From: an uncultured Atribacterota bacterium
GTDB taxonomy: Bacteria; Atribacterota; Phoenicimicrobiia; Phoenicimicrobiales; Stramentimicrobiaceae
Reading direction: 5' to 3'
Length of the DNA stretch: 47,298 nucleotides
Assembly (NCBI GenBank): GCA_964404675.1
Contig: CAYOLB010000294.1
Location: forward strand, 1-47,298
The notes beneath the pieces are model-generated. The model made no database searches. It was not told the origin of the DNA and was given only the letters and a program-made list of their open reading frames with translations. Made by a program: the position numbers and the translations under genes. Shown here piece by piece: positions 10,061-25,170 of this stretch; positions within the stretch are counted from its first letter, which is position 1, and each line of letters opens with the position of its first letter.

Positions 10061-11563
10061 ATGCAGTACAAAGGAAAACAAGTTATTATTGATAGTGGCT
10101 TGAGTGAAGAACGTGTTGCTATCTTAGAAAATAACAAATTAGTTGAGATACATATTGAAAGGTTGGAAGACCGAAAGATTATCGGTAATATTTACAAGGG
10201 TAAGGTAATGAACGTTTTACCTGGAATAGAGGCAGCATTTATTGATATTGGTATTGATAGAAATGCATTTCTGCATTTAAATGACCTGGATCAATCTTTC
10301 GGAAATCAGAATGGCAAATCTGCTGAAGTAAAAGAAATGATTAAAATAGGTCAGGAGATTGATGTACAAGTTGTGAAAGAAGCAATTATACCAAAGGGTG
10401 CAAGGGTTACCACAAATATAAGTCTGCCTGGTCGTTACCTGGTTTTAATGCCCAATAATAATGGAATTGCTGTTTCTAGGAGAATCGAGCAAGAAGAAGA
10501 AAAAGAGAGATTAAAGAAAATCTTACAAAAAAACAAGAAAAATAAATTTGGTTTTATTGTAAGAACAGCAGGGGTAGGCAAAGACGAAAGTGATTTTATC
10601 CCTGATATGGACTTGTTGATAAGGTTATGGAATAAAATTCAAAGAAGAAGTCGAAGAGTAGAAGCACCCATGTTACTTCATGAAGATTTAAATTTGACTT
10701 ATAGAGTTATACGAGACTTGTTTACAGAGGATATCGATGAATTTGTAGTTAATTCGAAAAAAGAATATCAGGAAATTATCAATTTTCTTGATACACTTTT
10801 ATTGCTTGATTTGAAGCCGCGCGTTTCTTATTATGATGGGGATAAACCAATTTTTGAAGAATACAATATTGAAAAAGAGATAAATCGTGCCTTAGAGAAA
10901 AAAGTATGGCTGAAGTGTGGCGGTTATCTGGTATTTGATGAAGTGGAAGCCTTAACGGTTATTGATGTGAATACTGGCAAGTATGTCGGTGGCAAAAAAA
11001 TGAAAAATACAATTTTAAAAACAAATTTACAGGCTGCTGAGGAAATAGCCAGGCAATTAAGACTGAGAGATATTGGTGGTATTATAGTTATTGATTTTAT
11101 TGATATGGATAACAAGGAAGACCAAGAAAAGGTGATAAAAAAATTAGAGGAAGCCTTGAAAAAAGATAAGACCAAATCAAACATTGTTCAAACAACTGAG
11201 TTAGGTCTTGTTGAAATGACACGGAAACGTTCCAAGAGAGACTTGGATTCACTGTTGCGGACCTCATGCCCTTATTGTTCAGGCAATGGTAGAATTTTAT
11301 CTGCAGAAACAGTAAGCAACCAGGTTATTCATAAGCTGGAAGATTTGAGTAAGCATTCCAAGGCTGAGGCAATATTGTTGGGAGTACATCCAAAAGTAGA
11401 AGAAGAATTATCTGCCAGTAAGATGATGCTTATTAAGCAATTGGAACGAGATTATCATAAGGCTATTTATATTAAAGTATTAAATGACATTCATTTGGAG
11501 AAAATAAAGGTTATTGCTGTAGGGAGAAAAAAGGAAGTAAAAAAGATGGTAAAAATGCTTTAA
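10061..11563 (+). CDS. rng: Rne/Rng family ribonuclease (RNase G-like)
   Basis: GNIYKGKV..VLPG..AAFIDIG S1 domain, IDVNTG, RQLRLRDIGGIIVIDFIDM, CPYC.G.G. Confidence 0.92.
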   Translation: MQYKGKQVIIDSGLSEERVAILENNKLVEIHIERLEDRKIIGNIYKGKVMNVLPGIEAAFIDIGIDRNAFLHLNDLDQSFGNQNGKSAEVKEMIKIGQEIDVQVVKEAIIPKGARVTTNISLPGRYLVLMPNNNGIAVSRRIEQEEEKERLKKILQKNKKNKFGFIVRTAGVGKDESDFIPDMDLLIRLWNKIQRRSRRVEAPMLLHEDLNLTYRVIRDLFTEDIDEFVVNSKKEYQEIINFLDTLLLLDLKPRVSYYDGDKPIFEEYNIEKEINRALEKKVWLKCGGYLVFDEVEALTVIDVNTGKYVGGKKMKNTILKTNLQAAEEIARQLRLRDIGGIIVIDFIDMDNKEDQEKVIKKLEEALKKDKTKSNIVQTTELGLVEMTRKRSKRDLDSLLRTSCPYCSGNGRILSAETVSNQVIHKLEDLSKHSKAEAILLGVHPKVEEELSASKMMLIKQLERDYHKAIYIKVLNDIHLEKIKVIAVGRKKEVKKMVKML

Positions 11564-11627
11564 AAGACATAGTATGTGCCGGAAGATTGTTGAGATACAC
11601 AAGAATTTTATTATCTATAAAAATGAT

Positions 11628-11656
11628 TTGACATGAATTGCTATATATGATAAATT
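11628..11656 (+). promoter_or_regulatory. sigma70/sigmaA promoter of rplU-rpmA
   Basis: TTGACA-N17-TAAATT with extended TGn. Confidence 0.65.
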
Positions 11657-11664
11657 TTATAAGC

Positions 11665-11716
11665 TAAGTGACGCACTGCATAGGTAAAAAAGCTATAGGC
11701 TGCCTATTCGGGCGAT
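11665..11716 (+). ncRNA. Putative L21 leader cis-regulatory RNA
   Basis: GC-rich 5' UTR of rplU, CGCAC...ATAGG...CCTAT..CGGGCGA with nested pairing; resembles the Firmicutes L21 leader from memory. Confidence 0.55.
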
Positions 11717-11742
11717 TTTTGAAAGTAGGAGGAAAACACTAA

Positions 11743-12060
11743 ATGCACGCAGTTATTGCAACTGGAGGGAAACAGTACTTAGTAGAAGAAGGAAATATTA
11801 TAAAGGTAGAAAAACTTGAAGCCAAGAAAGGTGATAAGGTCAAATTTGATGAAGTATTGCTTTTGGAAAAAGATGGCGAATATCAAATTGGACAGCCCTT
11901 GGTTAAAAATAGTTTTGTAGAAGGTCAGGTTTTGAAACAGGGACGTGATAAAAAAATTGTAGTTTTCAAATATAAACCAAAGAAAAAATACCAAAAGAAG
12001 ATTGGTCATAGACAGTCTTTTACAGAAGTAAAGATTGAAAAAATTGCTGAGGGTAAATAA
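11743..12060 (+). CDS. rplU: 50S ribosomal protein L21
   Basis: AVIATGGKQY, KIVVFKYKPKK, GHRQ; AGGAGG RBS. Confidence 0.97.
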   Translation: MHAVIATGGKQYLVEEGNIIKVEKLEAKKGDKVKFDEVLLLEKDGEYQIGQPLVKNSFVEGQVLKQGRDKKIVVFKYKPKKKYQKKIGHRQSFTEVKIEKIAEGK

Positions 12061-12107
12061 GATATCAATAAGTTGAAGCTATAGCTTTTAAAGAGAGGTG
12101 AGATTAT

Positions 12108-12368
12108 ATGGCTCATAAAAAAGGACAGGGTTCAGCTAAGAACGGTCGCGATAGTATATCGAAACGTTTAGGAGTAAAGAAGTTTGGCGGTCAGCTGGTA
12201 AAAAGCGGTAATATTCTTATTAGACAAAGAGGAACTCGAATATTGCCTGGTAAAAATGTAGGCCGTGGTAATGATGATACGCTATTCGCTTTAATCGATG
12301 GTTATGTTGAATTTAAAAACAGGGGAAGTAATAGAAAACAGGTTTCTGTTAATGCAACAGAAAGCTAG
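12108..12368 (+). CDS. rpmA: 50S ribosomal protein L27
   Basis: [26 protein letters not shown]. Confidence 0.97.
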
Positions 12369-12391: not shown

Positions 12392-12423
12392 ACCCTGGGT
12401 TTCGAAAAAACTCAGGGTTTTTT
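12392..12423 (+). terminator. Rho-independent terminator after rpmA
   Basis: ACCCTGGGTTT-CGAAA-AAACTCAGGGT stem (one G-U pair) followed by a T run. Confidence 0.75.
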
Positions 12424-12467: not shown

Positions 12468-13760
12468 ATGTTTTCGGATAAAGTTATTATTAATGTAAAA
12501 GCTGGCAAAGGTGGTGACGGAGCGGTAAGTTTTCGAAGGGAGCGTTTTATACCTAAGGGTGGTCCTGATGGTGGTGATGGTGGAAAGGGTGGAGATGTCT
12601 TCATCCAGGCTGATTCACATACCAAAACTTTAATACAGCTTTATCGTAAACCACATTGTAATGCAGAAGATGGTGAAAGAGGGAGAGGACAGAAAAAAAA
12701 TGGCAAGGAAGGCCAGGATTTACTGCTTCAAGTACCATTAGGCACTATTGTGGAAGACCTGGAGAAGAATAAAATTGTTGCGGATCTTTCTAATGCAGGA
12801 GACAAGATATGTGTAGCCAGAGGTGGAATGGGAGGAAAAGGGAATTACCGTTTTAGGGGTTCACAAAGACAGGTGCCAAACTTTTCCCAAAAAGGAGAGC
12901 CAGGAGAAGAAGTAAAGCTTAAGCTGAATCTAAAACTTATTGCTGATGCAGGTCTTGTAGGATTTCCAAATGCAGGTAAATCAACTCTTCTTGCGCGTGT
13001 TTCTGCTGCTAAACCAAAGATTGCAGATTATCCTTTTACTACTGTTGAGCCTAATTTGGGAGTAGTGCAAGTTGATGAGGAGAATTCCTTTGTTCTTGCT
13101 GATATTCCTGGTCTGATAGAAGGTGCTCACACAGGTGTTGGAATGGGTACACGTTTTTTAAAACATATAGAGAGAACCAAAGTGTTGGTACATCTTATTG
13201 ATGGTGTCCAAATAACATCAGAAAACCTTTTTCAAAATTATCAAATTATTGAAAATGAATTGACACAATATGCTAATTTTTTATTAGAAAAGGAAAAAGT
13301 TGTGGTTATAAATAAATGTGACTTACCAGAGGTAGCAAGAAAAAAGGAATGGATAAAAGAAGAATTTTTGAAAAAAGGTATTGATGTTTCCTTTATTTCA
13401 GCTGTACAGGGACAGGGTGTGCAGGAGCTTATTTATAAATTATATAATTTGATTATTGCCGTAGATACAAAAGAAAGAAATAAAGAACAATCAGTGGAAA
13501 AACAAAGAGAGGAAAAGAAAATACCCGTTTATAAATATAAACCTGAATTTACCATTAAAAAAATGAATGATTTCTTTATTGTTGAAAGTGAAAAAATGGA
13601 GAAAATGGTTAACCAGTATGATTTAGATAATCCCCAGGCGTTACAATATTTGCAAAAAATACTTAAGAGTATAGGTATAGAAAAAGCTCTAAAAAGAGAA
13701 GGCATAACTGAAGGTGATCGAGTGAAAATTGGTGATAAGGATTTTTACTTTTACTCATAG
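12468..13760 (+). CDS. obgE: GTPase ObgE/CgtA with C-terminal OCT domain
   Basis: Gly-rich Obg fold, GFPNAGKS, YPFTT, DIPG, NKCD; C-terminal GIEKAL..GI.EGD.V.IG. Confidence 0.96.
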   Translation: MFSDKVIINVKAGKGGDGAVSFRRERFIPKGGPDGGDGGKGGDVFIQADSHTKTLIQLYRKPHCNAEDGERGRGQKKNGKEGQDLLLQVPLGTIVEDLEKNKIVADLSNAGDKICVARGGMGGKGNYRFRGSQRQVPNFSQKGEPGEEVKLKLNLKLIADAGLVGFPNAGKSTLLARVSAAKPKIADYPFTTVEPNLGVVQVDEENSFVLADIPGLIEGAHTGVGMGTRFLKHIERTKVLVHLIDGVQITSENLFQNYQIIENELTQYANFLLEKEKVVVINKCDLPEVARKKEWIKEEFLKKGIDVSFISAVQGQGVQELIYKLYNLIIAVDTKERNKEQSVEKQREEKKIPVYKYKPEFTIKKMNDFFIVESEKMEKMVNQYDLDNPQALQYLQKILKSIGIEKALKREGITEGDRVKIGDKDFYFYS

Positions 13761-13844: not shown

Positions 13845-16800
13845 ATGGCTTCTTTATCTATTCTTATTAAAAAATACATTGATAAGCAAACTAGATTTAA
13901 TTTACTAAATTGGGCAATTGTTGCTGTAATAATTTTTTTGTTATCAGGAGCAAACGCTCTTGGTTCAGAAGAACCCTCTATTGCGGTTTATTATTTTCAT
14001 AATCAAAGCGGAAAAGATGATTTGGAATGGTTAGAAGAAAATTTGGCTGTTTCAATGGGTCAAACATTATCAAAAATTGAACAGATATCTTATATTCCAT
14101 TATCCGAAGCGGAGAGTATTGCTGATTATCAGCAATACAAAGATATGGTCCAGAAGAAAGACTCAATGTTGTTCGGCCAATTGGCAAATTTGCTGCAAGC
14201 TGATTTAATTTTTTCGGGTAATTATTACCAGGAAGAAAAAGACCAGATTGATCTGGACCTGTTAATGTATTCGACCTCCGAGGGTTACTTGGTTGAATTT
14301 CGTAGAATGTCAGCTCCTCTGGACGATTTGTACGATTTAAAGGAAAGAGTAATCAGGATTATTTTGCAGGAATCCGGTATTGATCCAGACAGAGTTCCTT
14401 TGGAGACTATTATAGAAGCTGATATTGTTGAAATAGAGACAGATGTAGCCGAAGAAGAGGTGTCTGATATATTTACCATCGAAGAACCTCTTGTCGAAGA
14501 ACCTCGCAGGGACCTTGCACAAATTGCATCGCTTTTTCTGGATGGGCAATCAGCTTCAGAGTATTATCAGAAAGCAATAGAGTTAAAGGAAAAAGCTATT
14601 TTGGAATATGGGGGAGCTGATTATCCCAGTAAACCTTTGTGGAATGAGGCAATTCAGAACGCAACAAAAGCTGTTGAGCTAGACCCTGATTTTGCTGATG
14701 GTTATTACCTGTTATATGAGATTTATCGAAAAACAAAGTGGATTGCCCGGGAAATAGAAAGTCTGGAACTATATGTTGATACTGTGCAGAGAACTGGTAA
14801 ACAGGTTAATAATACAGAATTTTCTATATTACTTACCAGGCTTGCTCATTTAAAATATAATGCCGGTGAAGTTTCATCTGCTATCTACTATTTAGAGGAG
14901 GCAATTTCATATAATAAAAACGATATTGATGCCCGGTCATATTTAGTGAGGATTTATTATGATACCGGACAGGAAACAAAGGCGTTGCAGCAGGCAGAAG
15001 AGATTAAAAGAATTCAACCGGAAAGCATTGAACTGGACTGGTTTGCAAGTAGAACACAAAGAATATCAATATTTGGCCGGCAAGCCTTTGAGAGTTATGA
15101 AAAAGGGTATAATTCTTATATTGTAAAAAATTACAGTGAGGCTATAAATTATTTAGAACAGGCAATTAGTATGGCTCCTGCATTTAAAGATGCCCATTAT
15201 TATTTAGGTTTAAGTTATTATCACTATGGAAATTTAGATGGAGCTATTCGTCATTGGGAAGAGGCCGTCAGGTTAGACACATTCGACAATCATGCCAGGA
15301 TTTATTTAAACAAAGCGCTTGAAGAAAAGGAATACGGGAGAGATGCTGTCTGGAAATTTAATGAGGGTTATGAGCACTATATAGCCGGCGAATACGAGGA
15401 CGCTTTAGCCGAATTCAAAGCATCCACTTACTTGAATCCTAATTTTGAAAAAGCAAGAACGTTTTTAATGCGCACATATTTCCATTTAGACCGGATGGAT
15501 GAATATGCGGAAGAGAGAAGAAGAATTGGGGAAAACGTTGAATATACTGGAGGAATGGAGAAAGAGTTTTACCAGTTAGGCTATGATTTTTACTCAATAG
15601 GCGATTACAAGGTAGCATTAGAAAAACTAAGGGAATCATTAGAGATAAATCCTGATTATTTAGAGGCAAGGTTTTTGATTGCTGAAACCCTTTACCAGCT
15701 AAAAGATTATCATGAAGCAAATGTTCATTATAAATATATAATTGATAATTACCCCAATAGTGAGTATTATGAAAATTCTTTATTGGGAAGTGGGTGGTGT
15801 TTATATTTACTTGAAGAATATCCCCAATCTGAAGAGTATCTAAAGCTGTTGATAGATAATTTTCCAAAAAGTTCTTTATATGAAGAGGGGATTTATAAAT
15901 TAGGAAGAGTCTATTTTGTTCAGGAGAAATACCCCCTTACAATACAGCTTTATGAGAACTTATTAGAATCAGAATCATTGGAATATGATTTGGTAGAGAT
16001 AAAATATGTCTTAGGTCAATCATATTTCTGGTTAGAAGACTATGAACAGTCAAAAAAATATCTGCTGGATATTATAGAGAATAATACAGATTTTAAACAG
16101 ATAGACGAGACAAGGTATTATTACAGCTTTACATTATTCAGGGAAGAAAAATATAACGAGGCTATGGGTGTTTTAGAGAAGTTGCTGGAGAAGGAAAACA
16201 GTCCAGTAGAAAATGAGGCAGCATATCTTTTAGGAAGGACATTGCTTGAGCAAAGAGAATATGATAGAGTTATTGAAATTAATAGTACTTTGATAGAAAA
16301 AGATGCAGTAGAAGAATACATATTGGAAAGAGCGTTATTTGATTTAGGTTTATCATATTCCAGGAAAGATGATGATGAAAAAGCAGTGCCCTATTTCGAG
16401 CGTGTTATTAAAGAATTTCCTAAGGGGGAACTTGCAGGCTTAAGTAAAATTGAGCTCGCTCAAAGCCTTTATCACCTTGGAAAATACCAGGATTCAATTG
16501 ATGTGTTGGAAAATACAAACACAAAAGAAGCCTGGGAAATTAAACTTGATTCTGCAACAAGACTGGGTGATGAAGAATTATTACTTTCATTATATGAAGA
16601 GGCTGAAGAGATATATCCTAATGGTGATTTATCTGTAGATGGGTTTTGTGCTCTGGCAAAAACACAATTTGAAAGCAATAAGTACCAGGAAGCAATTGAA
16701 ACCTTTAGCATGATTGAAGACATGAATATTACCGATCAGATGAGAATGGAAATAAATTACTGGAAAGGATTAAGTTTTTACAGACTGGCAGATTATAATC

Positions 16801-17561
16801 AGGCTAAAGATAATTTTCAGAAAGTTGATTATTTGGAAGAAAGCGAAATTTCCGCGAGATCTCTATATATGTTAGCTGAAACCTGTTATCAGCAGGCAGA
16901 CTTTAAGTCAGCAATTACTTATTATAAAGATTTTTTACAACACTACAGCACTCATTCATTAAGAGAACATGTCCAATACAGTATTGCCTGGAGTTACTTA
17001 AATGATAAAGATTATCCTAATGCATTGTTATCATTCCAGGAGCTCATACAGCAATATCCTGATAGTTCATTTATAGAGGAAAGCGTTTTTCTTACAGGAA
17101 AGATAAATTATTTAATATCTGATAATAATAATTCTAAGACCAAATTAACAGATTTTATTGATAAATATCCGAATAGTGAATATCTGGAAGAAGCTATCTT
17201 TATTATTGCTCAGGTTGAACTGGAAGAACAGCAATGGATTGACAGTATATTGTACTTTGAAAGGCTAATAAATAATTACCCTGATAGCAGATATATGCCC
17301 GGTTCTCTTTATGGGCTTTGTTTGAGCTATTATAAAAAAGAAGAATATAACAAGGCTGCTACTGTAGGTGAAAGGTATTTAAATTCCTACCCGGATGGTA
17401 CTTTTAAATGTGATATACTGTATATCTCTGCTATCAGCCAGCAGGAATTGGGAAACATAGATGAGGCATATAATTATTACACAAAGATTGTAAATGATTG
17501 TCCTGACAGCAGCTATTTAGACAGTGCTCAAGAACAATTAGATTATCTTAATACATTATAA
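13845..17561 (+). CDS. Large exported TPR protein with N-terminal TolB_N/CsgG-like domain and CpoB/BamD-like repeats
   Basis: Signal peptide; IAVYYF.N.SG..DL.WL...LA..LQADLIFSG.Y alpha/beta domain; many TPRs, the later ones with YP.S...EEA motifs. Confidence 0.8.
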   Translation: MASLSILIKKYIDKQTRFNLLNWAIVAVIIFLLSGANALGSEEPSIAVYYFHNQSGKDDLEWLEENLAVSMGQTLSKIEQISYIPLSEAESIADYQQYKDMVQKKDSMLFGQLANLLQADLIFSGNYYQEEKDQIDLDLLMYSTSEGYLVEFRRMSAPLDDLYDLKERVIRIILQESGIDPDRVPLETIIEADIVEIETDVAEEEVSDIFTIEEPLVEEPRRDLAQIASLFLDGQSASEYYQKAIELKEKAILEYGGADYPSKPLWNEAIQNATKAVELDPDFADGYYLLYEIYRKTKWIAREIESLELYVDTVQRTGKQVNNTEFSILLTRLAHLKYNAGEVSSAIYYLEEAISYNKNDIDARSYLVRIYYDTGQETKALQQAEEIKRIQPESIELDWFASRTQRISIFGRQAFESYEKGYNSYIVKNYSEAINYLEQAISMAPAFKDAHYYLGLSYYHYGNLDGAIRHWEEAVRLDTFDNHARIYLNKALEEKEYGRDAVWKFNEGYEHYIAGEYEDALAEFKASTYLNPNFEKARTFLMRTYFHLDRMDEYAEERRRIGENVEYTGGMEKEFYQLGYDFYSIGDYKVALEKLRESLEINPDYLEARFLIAETLYQLKDYHEANVHYKYIIDNYPNSEYYENSLLGSGWCLYLLEEYPQSEEYLKLLIDNFPKSSLYEEGIYKLGRVYFVQEKYPLTIQLYENLLESESLEYDLVEIKYVLGQSYFWLEDYEQSKKYLLDIIENNTDFKQIDETRYYYSFTLFREEKYNEAMGVLEKLLEKENSPVENEAAYLLGRTLLEQREYDRVIEINSTLIEKDAVEEYILERALFDLGLSYSRKDDDEKAVPYFERVIKEFPKGELAGLSKIELAQSLYHLGKYQDSIDVLENTNTKEAWEIKLDSATRLGDEELLLSLYEEAEEIYPNGDLSVDGFCALAKTQFESNKYQEAIETFSMIEDMNITDQMRMEINYWKGLSFYRLADYNQAKDNFQKVDYLEESEISARSLYMLAETCYQQADFKSAITYYKDFLQHYSTHSLREHVQYSIAWSYLNDKDYPNALLSFQELIQQYPDSSFIEESVFLTGKINYLISDNNNSKTKLTDFIDKYPNSEYLEEAIFIIAQVELEEQQWIDSILYFERLINNYPDSRYMPGSLYGLCLSYYKKEEYNKAATVGERYLNSYPDGTFKCDILYISAISQQELGNIDEAYNYYTKIVNDCPDSSYLDSAQEQLDYLNTL

Positions 17562-17678
17562 TGATGAATATTTTATTAAGATAGAAACATAACAAGATAA
17601 TTTTCAATACAAGAATAAATTAAGATTTAGAAAGAAATTAAAAAATTATTTATAGATAATAGAGGAGGCAACTATTTA

Positions 17679-18341
17679 ATGTTTGAACTATTTATTAAGG
17701 GCGGTTTCTTAATGTACCCGATTTTCTTCTGTTCTTTACTGGCTATTGCTATTTTTTTTGAAAGAATGTTTTACATGAAGAGTATAAAAACATCAACAAG
17801 AAAATTTGGCAATAGAATCAGTGATTTAATAAGAAAGGGGAACATTAATTATGCAATATCCGCTTGCAGAAAGAATATTACACCCATATCTCAGATAATT
17901 CTGGCAGCTCTATTAAAATATGGCAGTTCAAGGGATGAGATAAAGGAGACTATTGAAGACACTGCCAGACAAGAAGTTGATATATTAGAGAGAAATTTAC
18001 CTATCCTGGCGACTGTTGCCAATATTGCCCCATTATTAGGACTTTTGGGGACAGTTTTTGGTATGATAAAGGCGTTTCAAGTTGTTTCAGTTGTAGGTGT
18101 AGGTAATCCTGAAGCCTTAGCCGGAGGAATATCGGAAGCATTGCTGACAACTGCATTTGGTCTTTCTGTGGCTATTCCAACTATTGTTGCTTACAATTAC
18201 CTTACCCATCGGGTAGATAGGCAGATTAAGGAAATGGAATCCACATCTATAGAAATCCTGGAATTATTAACTATTGAAAAAGAGACAAAAGACGTTAAAG
18301 AGGAAGGTGTAAAAATAAATGAAATTCTCTCACGCCAATAA
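17679..18341 (+). CDS. exbB: MotA/TolQ/ExbB proton-channel protein
   Basis: GGFLMYPI, APLLGLLGTVFGMI.AF, LAGGISEALLTTAFGL..AIP; GAGGAGG RBS. Confidence 0.9.
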   Translation: MFELFIKGGFLMYPIFFCSLLAIAIFFERMFYMKSIKTSTRKFGNRISDLIRKGNINYAISACRKNITPISQIILAALLKYGSSRDEIKETIEDTARQEVDILERNLPILATVANIAPLLGLLGTVFGMIKAFQVVSVVGVGNPEALAGGISEALLTTAFGLSVAIPTIVAYNYLTHRVDRQIKEMESTSIEILELLTIEKETKDVKEEGVKINEILSRQ

Positions 18342-18729
18342 AAAAAGCATTGGTTTTGATATAACACCTCTAATAGATGTGGTTTTTTTATTACTTATCT
18401 TTTTCATGCTGACTACTACCTTTATAAATGTTGAAAGCGGTGTAAAAGTAGACCTTCCGAGCGGAGATTTTGCCGCAGTTGAAGAAAGGCAAAACCTTGT
18501 TGTTTCCATTACTGAAAATAATGTTCTATATCTAAATAACATGTTAATTAATCCTAATAATTTATCAGAACGCATAAGAGAAGAAATTGGCAATAATGTA
18601 GATTCATTGGTTGTATTGGAGGCAGATCAGAATATTAGTCATGGAAAAGTGGTTAGGGTAATGGATTTAATAAAAAAAGGCGGAGCTGAAAAAATTGCTA
18701 TTGCAACCAAGCCAATTGAAGAAAATTAA
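18319..18729 (+). CDS. exbD: ExbD/TolR biopolymer transport protein
   Basis: DITPLIDVVFLLLIFFM with the conserved Asp; VDLP; LEAD....HG.VV.VMD; overlaps exbB. Confidence 0.9.
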   Translation: MKFSHANKKSIGFDITPLIDVVFLLLIFFMLTTTFINVESGVKVDLPSGDFAAVEERQNLVVSITENNVLYLNNMLINPNNLSERIREEIGNNVDSLVVLEADQNISHGKVVRVMDLIKKGGAEKIAIATKPIEEN

Positions 18730-18770
18730 ATAATACTATTGAAAAAATTGTTAGAAAACAGGGTGACTAA

Positions 18771-20264
18771 TTGAAAAATACTATTGGATATAGAGCAAAA
18801 AGAAGAAAAGTAAAGCAAAAAAGTTTTTTAGGTCGTTCTTTTTTGATTTCTGTGATTGTAAATTTATTGTTTATATTTGCCTTCAGCAATTTAATTACCT
18901 TTGATATATTTAATTTACCACCGGAGGAAGAGATTATTGAAGTAACTATGATGGAGTTACCTGCCGCTAGAACACCTGTATCACAGAGACCAGAAATAAT
19001 TAGGGAAGAGCCTCTTGCAGAAATGGATGTGAAGCCTAAAGTCGATCCAATGATGCCCGAACCAGCCCAAATCCAGGAGGTAGAGACACATCACCAGGAA
19101 GAGGAACAGGTTGCAATTGCAGAAAGCACCCCAAAGGTCGAGGTAAAAGTTCCAGAGATTGAAATTCCTGCTGAGGAAGATATTGCCCCAATAAAGGAAG
19201 AAATTGCATTGAGACAGGATGTACAGATAGCAGCAAGGGAGATTGACCCATCTTTAACCAGCAGGAGGGAAATTGAAGGTCAAATGTTGGAAGAAGGCAG
19301 TTATGAAATGCAGGCAAATTTAGGCATGGAAGGTCGTGAGCGGATTGAGTCAACATATGGTTCAGTGGTGACTCCCGGAAGAATAAGCAGTTTGCCAGAT
19401 GCAATTGAAAAAGAATCACCTTTTGGCAATAGACCATTAGCGGTTATGATTGACAATGCCAGTTTTGCCCGCCCCCAAAGCGGTTTAGACAAGGCAGATA
19501 TTGTTTACGAGGTACTGGCTGAAGGTGGAATTACCCGATTTTTAGCTATATATGCAACCAAGGAAGCTGACAAAGTAGGTCCGGTAAGAAGTGCCAGACC
19601 TTATTTTATAACCAAAACATTAGAACATAATGCTATTTATGTTCATGCTGGGGAGAGTCCGGATGCGGCAAGGTTTATTCGTGAAGAGAGAATAGACGAT
19701 ATTAATGAATTAGTCCATTATCAGCCATTCTGGAGAAGTCAGGATCGCAATCCACCCCATAATCTTTATGCCTCCACTGAACAGCTTAGAGATGAGACAA
19801 GAAGATTAGGCTATATTGAAATGGTACACAAGGGAGACTACCAGTTTGAAATTGACAGAGAAGAAGTCCTTACAGGTAGAGATGCTCAGAAAATTGACAT
19901 TAGATATCATAATGACTATACGGTTAGCTATCAATATATATCGGATGCGCAAAGATATGTTCGGTTTATTAATGGTCAACCTCACCTGGATGCAGAGACT
20001 GGCAAGGTTCTTGATGTAAAAAATATTATCATTCAGCATAGTGAAAGAAAAGTTTTAGATGAAGAGGGAAGGTTGTCAATTGATTTTATTGGAGAAGGTA
20101 GCGGGCTGATTATATTTAACGGTAAGTCTGAAGAAATTACCTGGGTAAAAGAGAGTCTTCAATCTAAAACGCTTTTTTATAATAAAGAGGGTAATAGATT
20201 AGCCATACAACCAGGAAATGTATGGATACAGGTAATTCATCCTGATACTGAACTTAGCTATTAA
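18771..20264 (+). CDS. TonB/TolA-like membrane anchor and Pro/Glu-rich stalk fused to DUF3048 (YerB-like) domain
   Basis: Basic N-terminus, single TM with S-x3-N, Pro/Glu-rich linker; from ~19430 RPLAVMIDN..ARPQSGL..ADIVYE..AEGGITRF..GPVRSAR. Confidence 0.8.
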   Translation: MKNTIGYRAKRRKVKQKSFLGRSFLISVIVNLLFIFAFSNLITFDIFNLPPEEEIIEVTMMELPAARTPVSQRPEIIREEPLAEMDVKPKVDPMMPEPAQIQEVETHHQEEEQVAIAESTPKVEVKVPEIEIPAEEDIAPIKEEIALRQDVQIAAREIDPSLTSRREIEGQMLEEGSYEMQANLGMEGRERIESTYGSVVTPGRISSLPDAIEKESPFGNRPLAVMIDNASFARPQSGLDKADIVYEVLAEGGITRFLAIYATKEADKVGPVRSARPYFITKTLEHNAIYVHAGESPDAARFIREERIDDINELVHYQPFWRSQDRNPPHNLYASTEQLRDETRRLGYIEMVHKGDYQFEIDREEVLTGRDAQKIDIRYHNDYTVSYQYISDAQRYVRFINGQPHLDAETGKVLDVKNIIIQHSERKVLDEEGRLSIDFIGEGSGLIIFNGKSEEITWVKESLQSKTLFYNKEGNRLAIQPGNVWIQVIHPDTELSY

Positions 20265-20267
20265 AAT

Positions 20268-20300
20268 TGTATTGAGTGTCGAGTATGTAGCCATCGAGTC
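20268..20300. repeat. Degenerate 7-mer repeat (AGTATyn family)
   Basis: TGTATTG AGTGTCG AGTATGT AGCCATCG AGTC. Confidence 0.45.
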
Positions 20301-20438
20301 TAAAAATAGTAAGAATTAAAACACTAATAATATTTTAGAATATAATGGATAGATTGATGATAGTTTTATACTTAATGCTCAAATTTCTGTAGATAATTGC
20401 CATAATCTTTTATTTCTAATTAAATATAAGGTAGATAT

Positions 20439-21335
20439 ATGGATCATCAGAAGGAACTAATAGAGAATTTTTTGGATTACCTATCTCTTGAGAGAGGCCT
20501 GGCTTATAATACAATTATTTCTTACCGCTATGATTTATTAAAATATTATGATTTTATTATTTCAAAAAAACATATTACATTTGAAGACCTGAATCGCGAA
20601 ATAATTAATGATTATTATCATTATTTAGGAAGTATTAATCTTGGGATTAATTCTATATTTAGGAATTTAGTGGCACTAAAAATGTTTTATCGCTTTTTGT
20701 TTACTGAGGAATTTACTAAAAAAGACCTAACAAATTTAATAGACTTTCCCAGGATGAGAAAAAAATTACCAATTGCCCTTAGCCTAAAAGAATTAGATAC
20801 AATATTAGATGAAAGAAATTTTAAAGGGATACTAGGGAAAAGAGACCAGGCGATTATGGAATTACTTTACGCAACTGGAATGAGAGTTACAGAATTAATT
20901 AGCCTTAAAAGAAATGATATTAAGTTGGAACATAGACTCCTTAAATGTACGGGAAAAGGTAATAAAGAAAGATGGGTTCCTTTCACTGATAGGGCACATG
21001 ATAGTTTGTTTTATTATATAAAATATATTCGAACTCGTCTTATAAAGAAAAGAGATACAAATTTATTATTTATAAACAACCATGGTAATCCAATTTCTCG
21101 CCAAGGAGTTTTTTATTTAATAAAAAATTATGCAAAAAAATCAGGAATAAAAAAGAAAGTAACACCACATACATTCAGACATACCCTGGCAACGCATTTG
21201 ATTGAAAATGGGGCAGATTTAAGATCTATTCAGGAATTATTGGGTCATTCTGATATTTCAACTACCCAAGTTTACACTCATGTTAGCAGAAAATGGGTTA
21301 AGGAAGAATACTTTAAAGCATTTCCAAGAATATAA
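20439..21335 (+). CDS. xerD: Site-specific tyrosine recombinase XerD
   Basis: ERGLA.NTI.SY..DL, ELLYATGMRV.EL, GKG.KER, HTFRH, LLGH, TQVY; precedes punA as in Firmicutes. Confidence 0.9.
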   Translation: MDHQKELIENFLDYLSLERGLAYNTIISYRYDLLKYYDFIISKKHITFEDLNREIINDYYHYLGSINLGINSIFRNLVALKMFYRFLFTEEFTKKDLTNLIDFPRMRKKLPIALSLKELDTILDERNFKGILGKRDQAIMELLYATGMRVTELISLKRNDIKLEHRLLKCTGKGNKERWVPFTDRAHDSLFYYIKYIRTRLIKKRDTNLLFINNHGNPISRQGVFYLIKNYAKKSGIKKKVTPHTFRHTLATHLIENGADLRSIQELLGHSDISTTQVYTHVSRKWVKEEYFKAFPRI

Positions 21336-21498: not shown

Positions 21499-22326
21499 AT
21501 GGAAGAAATATTAGCTAAAATTGAAGAAAGTATTAAATCAATACAAGAATATAGTAGGGTAAAACCAGAGATTGCTATTATCCTGGGAACTGGTCTGGGA
21601 GAGCTAGCTAACCAGATTGAGGACAAGGTGAGCATACCTTATAAAAATATTTCTAATTTTCCAATTTCTACGGTTCATGGTCATAGCGGAAACCTTGTAT
21701 TGGGAAAATTAGAGGACAAAAAGGTAGTTGCCATGCAGGGAAGGTTTCATTTCTATGAAGGATATAGCATGAAGGAAATAACCTTTCCCGTCAGAGTGAT
21801 GAGAAAGATGGGGGCAAAAATTATTATAATATCTAATGCCGCTGGTGGCATGAATCGTTTTTTTAAGAGAGGTGATTTAATGTTAATCACTGATCATATT
21901 AATCTTATGGGTGATAATCCTTTAATTGGCGCAAATGAAGATAAATTAGGCTCTCGTTTTCCAGATATGTCTCAGGCATATGATTTAGAATTGTTGAAGT
22001 TAACTGAAAGGGTTTCGTTGGAAGAAGGAATTTTAATACACAAAGGAATTTATGCGGGTTTACCTGGGCCAATGCTGGAGACTCCGGCAGAATATCGTTT
22101 TTTGATAAAAATTGGAGCTGATGCTGTTGGAATGTCTACGATACCAGAAGTTATTGTTGCCAATCACATGGGAATGCGTGTCCTGGGATTATCCTGTATT
22201 ACTGATCTGGCTATCGATGGAGCAGTTGAGAAGGTTCAATTCCAGGAAATTCTTCAGGCTGCAGCGAAATCTGAACCAATTATGAGTCGTGTTGTGAGAA
22301 AGGTAATAAAAAATATTGTTAGTTAA
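21499..22326 (+). CDS. punA: Purine-nucleoside phosphorylase (trimeric type)
   Basis: ILGTGLG, STV.GH.G, MQGRFHFYEG, NAAGG, DHIN, GP.LETPAE, GMST.PE. Confidence 0.9.
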   Translation: MEEILAKIEESIKSIQEYSRVKPEIAIILGTGLGELANQIEDKVSIPYKNISNFPISTVHGHSGNLVLGKLEDKKVVAMQGRFHFYEGYSMKEITFPVRVMRKMGAKIIIISNAAGGMNRFFKRGDLMLITDHINLMGDNPLIGANEDKLGSRFPDMSQAYDLELLKLTERVSLEEGILIHKGIYAGLPGPMLETPAEYRFLIKIGADAVGMSTIPEVIVANHMGMRVLGLSCITDLAIDGAVEKVQFQEILQAAAKSEPIMSRVVRKVIKNIVS

Positions 22327-22780
22327 TCTTATAAAAGTTTCAATATTAGCAACATTACCAGTATTAGAATTAAGAGGAGCTATTCCTATTGCAATAAATT
22401 ATTACAAATTACCAGTTATAACAAGCTATTTGTTTGCAATTGTAGGAAACATGATACCGGCGATTTTTTTGTTGCTTTATTTAAAACCATTCTCAGAGTT
22501 ATTGCGAAAATGGAAAATTTTTGATATATTTTTTTCTTGGTTATTTAAACGAACCAGGAGACACGAACAAAGGTATGAAAAATACGGTGCACTATTTTTA
22601 TTATTTTTCGTTGCAGTGCCTTTACCGATTACCGGAGTATGGACCGGTTCGGTTGCAGCATTTTTGTTTGGTATCCGTTTTTGGTATGCCTTCCCTATGA
22701 TGGCTGGAGGTGTCGTTATTGCGGGAATTATTGTTACATTAGCTAGTTTGGGAATTATAAATTTGCTTACTTATTGTTAG
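22316..22780 (+). CDS. COG2426 putative small multidrug export membrane protein
   Basis: LPVLELRGAIP and FVAVPLP.TG.WTG motifs; about four TMs. Confidence 0.8.
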   Translation: MLVNLIKVSILATLPVLELRGAIPIAINYYKLPVITSYLFAIVGNMIPAIFLLLYLKPFSELLRKWKIFDIFFSWLFKRTRRHEQRYEKYGALFLLFFVAVPLPITGVWTGSVAAFLFGIRFWYAFPMMAGGVVIAGIIVTLASLGIINLLTYC

Positions 22781-22846
22781 CAGAAAAATAAATATAGCCA
22801 AGATATGTTAGCTTGATTAACAATATTAATCAGGGGTAAAACAGTT

Positions 22847-23890
22847 ATGAGAAAAACTATAGAGTGGAAGCAAAACAAGGTATTAATGATAGACCAAAGA
22901 AAATTACCACATAAACTTGAGATAATGAGCTGTAAAAATTATCATGAAGTAGCTAATGCAATAAGGGGTTTGGCTATCAGGGGAGCTCCTGCCATAGGTG
23001 CTGCTGCTGCCTATGGGATGGCATTGGCAGCAATAAATATAGATACGGATAATATGGAAGAATTTTTAAAAGAATTAGAAAAAGCCAGGCAGGAATTGTC
23101 CATGACCAGGCCTACTGCGGTAAATTTATTTTGGGCTTTAAATGAAATCAATAAAATTAGTAAAAGAAAGGCAAATTCAGTAGAAGAGCTAAAAAATAAT
23201 ATTTTATTTGAAGCAGAAAAAATTGCAAAGCAGGATATTGAAATTAACTATCAGATTGGGAATAATGGTGTTGAGTTATTCAATGATAATGACAATATAT
23301 TAACTCATTGTAATGCAGGTTCACTGGCAACCGTTTATTATGGTACCGCCCTGGGTGTTATTAGATCAGTGTATAAAAAGAGAAAGAACATCAGAGTTTT
23401 TGTGGATGAAACCAGGCCGGTTTTACAAGGTGCCAGATTAACAGCATGGGAATTACTGACTGAGAAAATTCCAGCTACTCTTATATGTGATTCTGTAGCT
23501 GGTTTTTTAATGTCTCAAAATAAAATAAATAAAGTAGTTGTTGGTGCCGATAGAATATCGGCAAACGGAGATGTAGCCAATAAAATTGGAACTTATACTA
23601 TTTCAGTCTTAGCTAAAGAGCATAATGTACCTTTTTATGTTGCTGCTCCCTTTTCGACAATTGATTTTTCAATAAAGGAAGGAACTGAAATACCTATTGA
23701 AGAAAGAGACAAAAATGAGGTTACAAATATAATGGGACAGACAATAGCACCTGCTGGTATTGATGTCTTCAATCCTGCATTTGATGTAACTCCATGGAGG
23801 AATATAACTGCCATAATTACTGAGAAGGGCATAATAAGACCTCCTTTTTTATTAAACTTGAAAAGACCAAACATAAATGAAAAATATTAA
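22847..23890 (+). CDS. mtnA: S-methyl-5-thioribose-1-phosphate isomerase
   Basis: IDQR.LP, IRGAPAIG, RPTAVNL, THCNAG.LAT, ETRP.LQGARLT, ANKIGT, NPAFDVTP. Confidence 0.94.
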   Translation: MRKTIEWKQNKVLMIDQRKLPHKLEIMSCKNYHEVANAIRGLAIRGAPAIGAAAAYGMALAAINIDTDNMEEFLKELEKARQELSMTRPTAVNLFWALNEINKISKRKANSVEELKNNILFEAEKIAKQDIEINYQIGNNGVELFNDNDNILTHCNAGSLATVYYGTALGVIRSVYKKRKNIRVFVDETRPVLQGARLTAWELLTEKIPATLICDSVAGFLMSQNKINKVVVGADRISANGDVANKIGTYTISVLAKEHNVPFYVAAPFSTIDFSIKEGTEIPIEERDKNEVTNIMGQTIAPAGIDVFNPAFDVTPWRNITAIITEKGIIRPPFLLNLKRPNINEKY

Positions 23891-23910
23891 CTAAAGTTTG
23901 AGGTAAAAAT

Positions 23911-25170
23911 ATGCAAGATCCAGATAAATTTTTAATTACTGGTGGAAAACCATTGAATGGAACAGTGGTAATAGATGGTGCGAAAAATTCTGCTCTATCT
24001 ATTATGGCAGCCTGTCTTCTATCAAGCGAAGTAAGCATTTTAGAAAATGTACCTAGATTGAAAGATGTATACAGTATGATTGAAGTAATAAAGATACTTG
24101 GAGTAAGAGTAGAGTGGATTGATAATACAACACTTTCTATTGATCCAGATGATTTTAATAATTATGAAGCACCTTACGAATTGGTAAAGACTATGAGAGC
24201 ATCATTCTTGGTAATGGGCCCTTTATTAGCCAGACTGAGAAGGGCTAAAATATCACTCCCCGGGGGATGTGCTATTGGAGCAAGGCCAGTTGATTTTCAT
24301 TTGAAAGGTTTTCGGACATTAGGGGCTAATATAACTACCGAAGAAGGCTATATTAAGGCTGAGGCCAGCCAATTAAAAGGGAGCGATATTTATATTGATT
24401 TTCCCAGCCTTGGTGCAACTGAAAATATTATGATGGCAGCATCATTAGCTGAAGGGACTACTGTTATTGAAAATGCTGCTAAAGACCCAGAGGTTATAGA
24501 GTTGGGGAATTTTCTAAACAAAATGGGAGCACGAATTGAAGGATTGGGTAATGATATTATTACAATTGATGGTGTAAAAAAATTAAAAGGTGTAAGATAC
24601 AAGATTATTCCTGACAGAATAGAAGCTGGGACTTATATGATTGCTGCTGCAATTACAGGAGGGAATGTTACAATAAAAAACGTTAATCCCTATTATTTAA
24701 AGTCATGTATTGTAAAATTGGAAGAAGCAGGTCTAAATGTAGATATTGATAGTGATATAGCATATATTTCTGATCCAGAAGGAATCAAATCGGTTGATAT
24801 CAAAACAATGCCTTTTCCAGGATTTCCTACTGATATGCAAGCCCAATTTATGGCATTAATGACTATAGCTAATGGAACCAGTATTATAACTGAAAATGTA
24901 TTTGAGAATCGTTTTGCTCATGCGGGTGATTTAAGAAGAATGGGAGCAGACATAAAAATAGAAGGCCGTAACAGTATTATAAAAGGAGTAAAAAAACTTA
25001 GTGCTGCGCCGGTTATGGCTTCTGATTTAAGAGGAGGGGCTGCCCTGGCATTAGCTGCATTGGTCGCAGAAGGAACAACGGAAATAAGTAGAATATACCA
25101 CATTGACAGAGGTTATGTTAAACTAGAAGAAAAATTAAAGGCACTAGGTGCCAACATCAAAAGATATTAA
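23911..25170 (+). CDS. murA: UDP-N-acetylglucosamine 1-carboxyvinyltransferase
   Basis: GAKNS, MRAS..V.GPLLAR, LPGGCAIG.RP (active-site Cys), PGFPTDMQ, DLRGG. Confidence 0.96.
   Translation: MQDPDKFLITGGKPLNGTVVIDGAKNSALSIMAACLLSSEVSILENVPRLKDVYSMIEVIKILGVRVEWIDNTTLSIDPDDFNNYEAPYELVKTMRASFLVMGPLLARLRRAKISLPGGCAIGARPVDFHLKGFRTLGANITTEEGYIKAEASQLKGSDIYIDFPSLGATENIMMAASLAEGTTVIENAAKDPEVIELGNFLNKMGARIEGLGNDIITIDGVKKLKGVRYKIIPDRIEAGTYMIAAAITGGNVTIKNVNPYYLKSCIVKLEEAGLNVDIDSDIAYISDPEGIKSVDIKTMPFPGFPTDMQAQFMALMTIANGTSIITENVFENRFAHAGDLRRMGADIKIEGRNSIIKGVKKLSAAPVMASDLRGGAALALAALVAEGTTEISRIYHIDRGYVKLEEKLKALGANIKRY

Follow-up and report, generated by a model that had tools for sequence, protein, structure and literature searches.

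What does an ExbB-ExbD motor act on if the protein encoded next to it has neither a TonB domain nor a TolA domain? This question is raised by a 47,298-nt contig (C294) from an uncultured Atribacterota bacterium; we will call the whole contig the window. The contig is part of a metagenome-assembled genome (G000) of 2.37 Mb in 404 contigs, with 33% G+C, a completeness of 89.8%, and a contamination of 5.8%. Four co-oriented genes in the window encode a giant protein made of tetratricopeptide repeats (TPRs), an ExbB-like protein, an ExbD-like protein, and a protein of 497 amino acids (aa) that ends in DUF3048. From the letters of the window, it had been proposed that these genes form a non-canonical Ton/Tol-like motor operon (the original prediction).

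We think it probable that the four genes encode a motor coupled to a force transducer. It would be a machine of the Ton/Tol kind, driven by the proton motive force, with DUF3048 taking the place of the transducer's customary head. Comparative evidence gives good support to the mechanism that we propose for the membrane end, and, judging from their sequences, the four genes are a Ton/Tol-like unit, with a giant TPR protein, that is conserved throughout the phylum.

We propose that ExbB and ExbD form a stator with the composition ExbB5-ExbD2. The transmembrane (TM) helix of the 497-aa protein, the putative transducer, would rest on the outside of ExbB via Ser27 and Asn31, and the periplasmic ExbD dimer would catch a strand that resembles the D-box, in both respects like TonB and TolA. 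The flow of ions would then exert a pull on the linker of the transducer and, through it, on anything that DUF3048 grips in the zone of the cell wall and outer membrane. The TPR protein may be a scaffold or a ligand.

The gene cluster and its conservation

The 497-aa protein has matches in all 41 relatives and in 82 of the 86 genomes from the phylum (E ≤ 1e-10). In 73 of the 86 genomes, the match is essentially full-length (starting at or before position 22 of the query and ending at or after position 489, as counted from the table of matches). The four genomes that lack a match are 60–90% complete.

The original prediction depended on the four genes staying together in relatives. We compared 29 loci: 13 from named Atribacterota and 16 spread over families f2–f7, of which four are from closed genomes. 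Contig ends aside, the order TPR-exbB-exbD-DUF3048-xerD is kept in 13/13 and 16/16 loci, which represent all 7 families. In the first set, exbB-exbD are directly 5' of the DUF3048 gene in 13/13 loci, the TPR gene is upstream in 11/13 (L043 and L049 begin at exbB), and xerD is next in 12/13 (L047 stops short of it). In the second set, all four genes are present in 14/16 loci (L057 and L059 are cut at the contig edge), with xerD next in 16/16.

In the window, the open reading frames lie to the nucleotide where they had been predicted, between obgE and xerD (Table 1). Their spacing is tight, which supports a coupled system. The start of exbD overlaps the end of exbB by 23 nt, and the gap between exbD and the transducer gene is 3 nt or an overlap in other genomes. 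A ribosome binding site (GAGGAGG) lies 9 nt 5' of the ATG of exbB, and GGGTGA lies 5 nt 5' of the start codon of the 497-aa gene. A strong terminator-like hairpin is found 5' of obg, at 12392–12418. From there to 20264, a simple scan found no convincing terminator-like site: the number of sites was no higher than in shuffles of the region, and the single 5-pair site on the + strand is within the TPR gene. Two sequencing runs that we examined consist of contigs from relatives about 90% alike, probably DNA, and so do not bear on transcription.

Table 1. Coordinates of the four genes in the window and of the parts of the putative transducer
Feature	Position	Strand	Details
Giant TPR gene	13845..17561	+	1238 aa; open reading frame
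ExbB/TolQ-like stator gene	17679..18341	+	220 aa; PF01618 (MotA_ExbB), 6e-36
ExbD/TolR-like stator gene	18319..18729	+	136 aa; PF02472, 1e-30
DUF3048 protein gene, proposed force transducer	18771..20264	+	497 aa; TTG start; PF11258 and PF17479
TM helix, aa 24–44	18840..18902	+	Hydropathy; Ser27-x3-Asn31
D-box-like strand, I55-I-E-V-T-M-M-E-L-P64	18933..18962	+	Alignment, by eye
Acidic linker, aa 45–215	18903..19415	+	20% Glu, 10% Pro, net charge −25
DUF3048 N (aa 216–348) and C (aa 375–486) domains	19416..20228	+	Pfam

The genes that flank the cluster in the window are rplU-rpmA-obg (obg at 12468–13760) and xerD (20439–21335). The upstream neighbor obg is found only in the taxonomic order of the window's genome; for example, L050 has genes for an HtrA-like protease, a methylase, and an ABC transporter there. 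The gene order 3' of the cluster is unusually stable across Atribacterota: xerD is followed by genes for a purine-nucleoside phosphorylase, a small protein resembling multidrug exporters, and an IF-2B-family (MtnA-like) protein (21499–25170 in the window; L037–L065). In the window's taxonomic order, in the loci that reach that far, a gene of the EPSP synthase family (perhaps MurA-like) comes next.

In L050 (from the closed genome G045), lgt (PF01790, 4e-52) is located at 11440–12207, after the DUF3048 gene and before xerD, and its start overlaps the stop codon of the DUF3048 gene. A gap of the size of lgt (~750 bp, contents unscanned) is present at the same place in L051–L055, L057–L060, and L065. 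In the window, the DUF3048 gene and xerD are just 175 bp apart (20265–20438).

The anchor of the putative transducer and the stator

The putative transducer begins with a cytoplasmic segment that is rich in lysine and arginine, followed by one TM helix, a linker, and a module with the N and C domains of DUF3048. In an alignment of 30 orthologs (A1), Ser27 is invariant, and the residue at +4 is asparagine in 29 of the 30. It is histidine in L056, which represents the most divergent family, and also in the database proteins P0123 and P0128. Similarly, 18 canonical TonB proteins from Atribacterota have an invariant Ser13 and His17 (Ser-x3-His). When we aligned the transducers to the N termini of these TonB proteins with hhalign, Ser27 and Asn31 fell on Ser13 and His17 (probability 72%, E = 3e-5). 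According to excerpts from PMC12215075, the contacts to ExbB or TolQ in cryo-EM structures are made by Ser16 and His20 in TonB and by Ser18 and His22 in TolA. Relative to the SHLS motif, the spacing of leucine and serine in the transducer's TM helix is non-canonical. In E. coli TonB, asparagine can take the place of His20.

Ten residues past the helix, between Pro50-Pro51 and Pro64, is a strand in which Val58 is nearly invariant and Glu62 and Pro64 are invariant across the 30 orthologs. By eye, this strand has the same place and pattern as the D-box of TonB. As described in excerpts from PMC10907165, the D-box of E. coli TonB spans residues 43–54, includes Ser-Val-Thr-Met at positions 46–49, and is flanked by prolines; it binds the ExbD dimer, with alternate hydrophobic side chains being buried.

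We also compared aa 1–215 to the NCBIfam models and found weak matches to TonB (E = 1.8e-4) and TolA (E = 2.7e-3). JGI/IMG labels 4 of the 15 listed members of a 494-aa cluster as "outer membrane biosynthesis protein TonB"; the labels from NCBI for members of this cluster are all "DUF3048 domain-containing protein".

In Pfam, the only domains found in the 497-aa protein are DUF3048 (PF11258, 165.6 bits, 1e-48) and DUF3048_C (PF17479, 102.4 bits, 2.5e-29), with a cut-off of 25 bits; TonB_C (PF03544) and TolA domains are absent. The head also matches YerB from B. subtilis (PDB 2psb) over aa 219–493 (E = 2.9e-45), which places it in the DUF3048/YerB family, and at least 50 columns of the head are invariant in A1. 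The conserved Ser-x3-[Asn/His], the D-box-like strand, and the weak matches to TonB and TolA all favor the TonB/TolA-like stalk, ending in DUF3048, that had been predicted.

The stator looks functional, as had been anticipated from two motifs, TTAFGL in ExbB and PLIDVV in ExbD. Both are present in the translations (within ALLTTAFGL and TPLIDVVF). ExbB scores 123.4 bits against MotA_ExbB (cut-off 22.9) and ExbD scores 107 bits against PF02472 (cut-off 25.4), so they belong to these families. By hydropathy, ExbB has three TM segments and ExbD has one, which bears Asp20. In an alignment of ExbB to E. coli TolQ (8odt_A), which spans residues 94–182 only, Thr125, Thr158, and Pro167 correspond to Thr145, Thr178, and Pro187 of TolQ. 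Among Atribacterota, Thr125, Thr157, Thr158, and Pro167 of ExbB are invariant in 32/32 sequences, and Asp20 of ExbD is invariant in 29/29. The conservation of these pore residues agrees with an intact ion-conducting stator.

Against the equivalog models of NCBIfam, both proteins score below the cut-offs: ExbB has 120.3 bits for tolQ (cut-off 221) and 75.4 for exbB (cut-off 206), and ExbD has 79.7 bits for tolR (cut-off 127) and 59 for ExbD (cut-off 123). We considered using these scores to assign the stator to TolQ or to ExbB. However, tolQ and tolR are the best models for both motor pairs in the window's genome, including the pair next to a canonical TonB on contig C402 (see below), so the scores do not discriminate between Tol and Ton.

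The first TM segment (TM1) of ExbB has a single serine, Ser19, which is kept in 32/32 sequences. The residue at Ser19+4 is phenylalanine in L056, whose transducer has the histidine, and isoleucine, leucine, methionine, or valine in the others. We rejected this apparent covariation between TM1 and the transducer as evidence because it involves one lineage only.

In one family (L051, from the closed genome G059, and L054, L058, and L065), the stator genes are doubled, with the order exbB-exbD-TPR-exbB-exbD-DUF3048. Within each genome, the two ExbD proteins are 100% identical. The two ExbB proteins likewise show few or no differences over the length that they share, apart from the start of the open reading frame. 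This suggests a recent duplication or gene conversion.

Other Ton/Tol components and the possible role of the motor

Could a canonical TonB or TolA from elsewhere in the genome account for the motor, which would speak against the original prediction? For the window itself, that prediction had noted the absence of a TonB-dependent receptor, Pal, a TolB propeller, and TonB_C. We likewise found that no match to TonB_C, TonB-dependent receptors, OmpA domains, or TolB_N maps to C294 (the PD40 propeller family was not searched). Elsewhere, the answer depends on the lineage. TonB_C was not found in any of the four closed genomes of Atribacterota (G045, G059, G070, and G072), but the window's genome and 15 of the 21 genomes in its family do have a canonical TonB, which in the window's genome comes with its own ExbB and ExbD.

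In the window's genome, TonB_C is found only on C402 (3.7 kb), where a fragment of TonB_C is followed by ExbB and ExbD (positions 1–1392), and the barrel of a TonB-dependent receptor is found only on C85 (3.4 kb; positions 1–1874). We asked if these contigs might be contamination. Their composition is not set apart from the rest of the genome: the G+C contents of C402 and C85 are 0.343 and 0.363, and their tetranucleotide correlations are 0.971 and 0.951 (the genome's median is 0.967 and its 5th percentile is 0.919). Also, TonB_C recurs in the family, so we take the canonical Ton set to be real. Across the phylum, 21 of the 86 genomes have TonB_C: the window's genome and 15/21 of its family, along with 5/64 from other families (4/30 in the sister family and 1/34 elsewhere). 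The canonical set looks like an accessory system of the window's family.

For most of the phylum, which has no canonical partner, the DUF3048 protein is therefore the only candidate that is encoded beside the motor. In all four closed genomes, the cluster's ExbD is the only ExbD, and G045 has no match to PF01618 besides the ExbB of the cluster. This unit, conserved over the whole of a deep-branching diderm phylum, is the sole ExbBD-type motor in the closed genomes. (Atribacterota are diderm, as indicated by the presence of BamA in 4/4 closed genomes.) The original prediction of a distinct machine driven by ion-motive force is borne out insofar as the unit is conserved, with an intact stator and a TonB/TolA-like N-terminus; in the window's own genome, it would operate next to a canonical TonB.

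Tol-Pal components are also missing. TolB_N was not found in the window's genome or in the four closed genomes, and none of these five genomes has the combination of TolB_N and Pal (the PD40 propeller family was not searched). OmpA domains are absent from G000 and G045. In G059, G070, and G072, they are found only beside a second and longer MotA-like gene, except for one additional weak match in G070; we take these pairs to be MotAB. TonB_2 (PF13103) had no match in the five genomes, nor in the control genomes, so this family was uninformative.

Since most of the phylum has no TonB-dependent receptors, we take the job of the motor to be Tol-like, that is, the integrity of the envelope or the coordination of the wall and outer membrane, instead of Ton-like import. 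We also considered that the DUF3048 head might open an unrecognized outer-membrane transporter for nutrients. The hallmarks of the N-terminus are as TonB-like as they are TolA-like, and Atribacterota ferment sugars, according to the abstracts of papers about them, and would gain from uptake systems. However, the barrel of TonB-dependent receptors is found in 0/4 closed genomes, the head is not TonB_C, and the gene cluster's CpoB/BamD-like TPR protein is typical of Tol-type and assembly systems. Furthermore, the window's genome, which does have a receptor (on C85), also has a canonical TonB with its own ExbB and ExbD. Import seems quite improbable.

The giant TPR protein has a hydrophobic segment near its N-terminus (aa 18–36, by hydropathy), and Ala-x-Ala-like sites follow this segment in its orthologs. 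By eye, this is probably a cleaved Sec signal. Next is a lineage-specific domain (aa ~40–240) that looks like a mixture of α-helices and β-strands. This domain has no match in Pfam or NCBIfam, nor in a profile search of the sequences in PDB, and a homolog search found only 7 close relatives, with Atribacterota as the sole taxon among the names given. We considered a fold like TolB_N or LpoB, suggested by the pattern IAVYYF.N.SG...W, but none of these comparisons gave anything significant in its favor.

The remaining ~1,000 aa of the TPR protein are TPRs, with repeated modules that resemble YbgF/CpoB and BamD. Pfam identifies several TPR families (TPR_2 at 1e-57) as well as YfiO (2.6e-27). In NCBIfam, the protein scores 205.6 bits for tol_pal_ybgF (TIGR02795; cut-off 90.1), summed over 6 stretches, and 135 bits for BamD. 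The modules resemble CpoB, but the protein is built differently: CpoB has ~260 aa with a coiled coil and one TPR module.

Of 10 long DUF3048 proteins from elsewhere that we scanned, 6 also contain TPR_19 or TPR_16. These fusions hint modestly at a joint function of TPRs and DUF3048. From these fusions and from synteny, we infer that the TPR protein may be the periplasmic partner of the transducer, as had been predicted.

We also considered that the motor might power some other surface process, for instance gliding, secretion, or a pilus-like system; GldLM and AglRQS are motors of this sort. The TPR protein would then belong to a track across the envelope. Several such systems run on motors with a 5:2 stoichiometry, and the TPR protein does have weak matches in NCBIfam to PorW/SprE, GltC, GltE, and Tgl. 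However, these matches are far below the cut-offs and reflect generic TPRs. The conserved neighborhood (xerD, purine nucleoside phosphorylase, and, in one class, lgt) contains no gene for gliding or type IX secretion (the rest of the genomes was not searched for these). We consider this explanation to be very improbable.

The DUF3048 family and known systems

We searched a profile of the 30 orthologs against 1.84 billion representative proteins and found 9,755 members of the DUF3048 family (E ≤ 0.001). The N-terminal part of the profile was also matched only by three full-length proteins (P0057, P0121, and P0123) and a fragment (P0125). Among the best 150 representatives, S-x3-[H/N] in a hydrophobic helix at the N-terminus occurs in just four (P0057, P0121, P0123, and P0128), and one of the first three is in a cluster with members that are named as Atribacterota.

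P0128 is a metagenomic protein of 696 aa (L070:796–2883) with an S-L-I-I-H helix, a D-box-like strand, a linker of ~400 aa that is rich in lysine, glutamate, and proline, and a DUF3048 head. Upstream of it, on a 3-kb contig, is a divergent gene for a protein that resembles sugar-phosphate isomerases.

In other long DUF3048 proteins, a signal peptide is combined with an N-terminal part that is helical or contains TPRs. One large group of 560–690 aa (P0158, P0165, P0179, P0186, P0217, and others) has a signal peptide, a conserved helical N-terminal domain with Y-F-E-L-R-D-T, and, ahead of DUF3048, a long linker that is rich in lysine, proline, and alanine. In another group, of 810–917 aa, the proteins start with a signal anchor and continue with TPRs, DUF3048, and an extension at the C-terminus.

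Atribacterota also have short paralogs. In the window's genome, contig C366 (L006, 1042–3333, minus strand) encodes a DUF3048 lipoprotein of 389 aa, whose signal ends with a cysteine, directly after the gene for a D-Ala-D-Ala carboxypeptidase (Peptidase_S11). We considered this pairing as a possible link between DUF3048 and peptidoglycan, but it is absent from all 14 other loci of short paralogs from Atribacterota and from the 59 metagenomic loci described below. The common short paralog is found amid housekeeping genes: YbeY, RecO, and GlyQ at one locus, and RecO, cytidine deaminase, and CNNM/CBS membrane proteins at a second.

If the motor and the DUF3048 protein were not coupled, then the 497-aa protein would be a membrane-anchored wall protein of the YerB type, and the motor's real partner would be another protein, such as the TPR protein. 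As a rule, DUF3048 proteins are secreted or stand alone as lipoproteins. We fetched 59 metagenomic loci via P0128, of which 57 have a frame for DUF3048 and 26 of these 57 have at least 1.5 kb upstream; using the phylum's hidden Markov models, we found ExbB or ExbD in none of the 59. (This absence can also be counted as specificity of the fusion in Atribacterota.) The low scores of the similarity to TonB and TolA would fit as well. On the other hand, the DUF3048 gene is strictly adjacent to the motor genes throughout the phylum, the 497-aa protein keeps S-x3-[N/H] and the D-box-like strand at the exact places where TonB and TolA have theirs, and the closed genomes have no other candidate with TonB_C. 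As for the TPR protein, no polar motif is conserved in its hydrophobic segment, which resembles a cleaved signal. Overall, an uncoupled motor seems unlikely.

Several other observations weigh against a coupled motor and transducer, beyond the lack of ExbB and ExbD in the metagenomic loci. Most of the transducers have asparagine instead of the histidine, which excerpts from PMC12215075 term essential in TonB and TolA. According to the same source, Ser34 of ExbB and Ser28 of TolQ have a partner tryptophan at +4, while Ser19 of the Atribacterota ExbB, their possible counterpart, is followed at +4 by isoleucine, leucine, methionine, valine, or phenylalanine, in a segment (TM1) whose register is outside the alignment of residues 94–182. 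The matches to the TonB and TolA models are far below the cut-offs, and composition may explain them; the hhalign probability is only the 72% given above. P0128 has the same architecture as the transducer, yet its gene does not adjoin exbB-exbD on its 3-kb contig. DUF3048 proteins elsewhere work without a motor, and the literature describes them as lipoproteins of unknown function or gives the bare name (in a list of sporulation genes, YerB is a "putative lipoprotein"). Finally, the window's family also carries a canonical TonB-ExbB-ExbD, so cross-talk is possible there.

If DUF3048 does take the place of the usual head, what might it do? A role in the cell wall is our inference from the family's usual location, as surface lipoproteins of monoderm bacteria. 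More tentatively, we speculate that the operon is the only route by which inner-membrane energy reaches the envelope in most Atribacterota, and that it stands in for Tol-Pal. DUF3048 might then be a module, pulled on or gated by the motor, for binding or processing the wall, and the TPR protein, with its multiple CpoB-like modules, might couple the motor to wall synthesis or to constriction of the outer membrane. If this were true, it would be the first function for the large YerB/DUF3048 family. A coupled motor would also be a testable lead for this family, which is large and has a solved structure. And the four genes are candidates for explaining the unusual envelope of Atribacterota. According to the papers on their cultivation, this envelope shows three layers that resemble membranes, and the lipid A of its outer membrane is chemically unusual. 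(The main texts of these papers do not contain the terms TonB, ExbB, Tol, TolQ, or Tol-Pal; the set of terms checked varied by paper.) Among the literature matches listed, no further paper joins TonB with OP9 or Atribacteria, and none names Atribacterota along with TolQ, ExbD, TolA, or TonB.

The original prediction had also called the system the window's best candidate for an undescribed one. The word undescribed applies to the DUF3048 head. The principle of a motor's transducer with a foreign head, beside a TPR gene, is already in print: transducers with a TM helix, a linker, and a head of von Willebrand factor A (vWA) type adjoin TPR-tolQ-tolR-tolR, according to the main text of a 2025 survey (PMC12204202). 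That main text contains neither "DUF" nor "YerB", and it mentions Atribacteria only as a phylum with a reported TonB.

How does the Atribacterota unit compare to known systems? As in TolQ-TolR-TolA with CpoB, the gene after the stator pair encodes a putative transducer that has one TM helix, a motif of the Ser-x3-His type, and a long linker, and a TPR protein with CpoB-like modules is encoded in the same operon. The best NCBIfam models for the stator are tolQ and tolR, although the scores are under their cut-offs. Unlike Tol-Pal, the unit lacks domain III of TolA, TolB_N, and Pal, and its TPR protein is much larger (1238 aa, with many modules) and is encoded upstream rather than downstream. 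Also, the main text of PMC12204202 places curated Tol-Pal systems in Gracilicutes only.

The unit is like TonB-ExbB-ExbD in the topology of its putative transducer, the Ser-x3-[His/Asn], the proline-flanked D-box-like strand, and the linker rich in proline and glutamate. It differs from TonB in having a DUF3048 head instead of TonB_C and, mostly, asparagine in place of histidine, and in that the closed genomes have no TonB-dependent receptors.

The C-terminal 280 aa of the transducer resemble YerB (2psb) from end to end, including RPQSGL, EGGITRF, GPVRSAR, and PHNLY. Because all of these conserved stretches of YerB are kept, the head probably does what YerB does. In contrast to proteins of the YerB type, which are short lipoproteins, the module in Atribacterota is on a TonB-like anchor and a linker, behind a motor.

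In the main text of PMC12204202, the vWA system has a TPR gene, motor genes, and a stalk resembling TonB/TolA that bears a foreign globular head, in nearly the same order as in Atribacterota. The Atribacterota unit has a DUF3048 head and one tolR-like gene instead of two. The vWA system is reported from Proteobacteria, PVC, Bacteroidetes, and Rhodothermaeota, while the unit with DUF3048 is from Atribacterota. After vWA, DUF3048 would be the second foreign head for force transmission of the TonB/TolA type.

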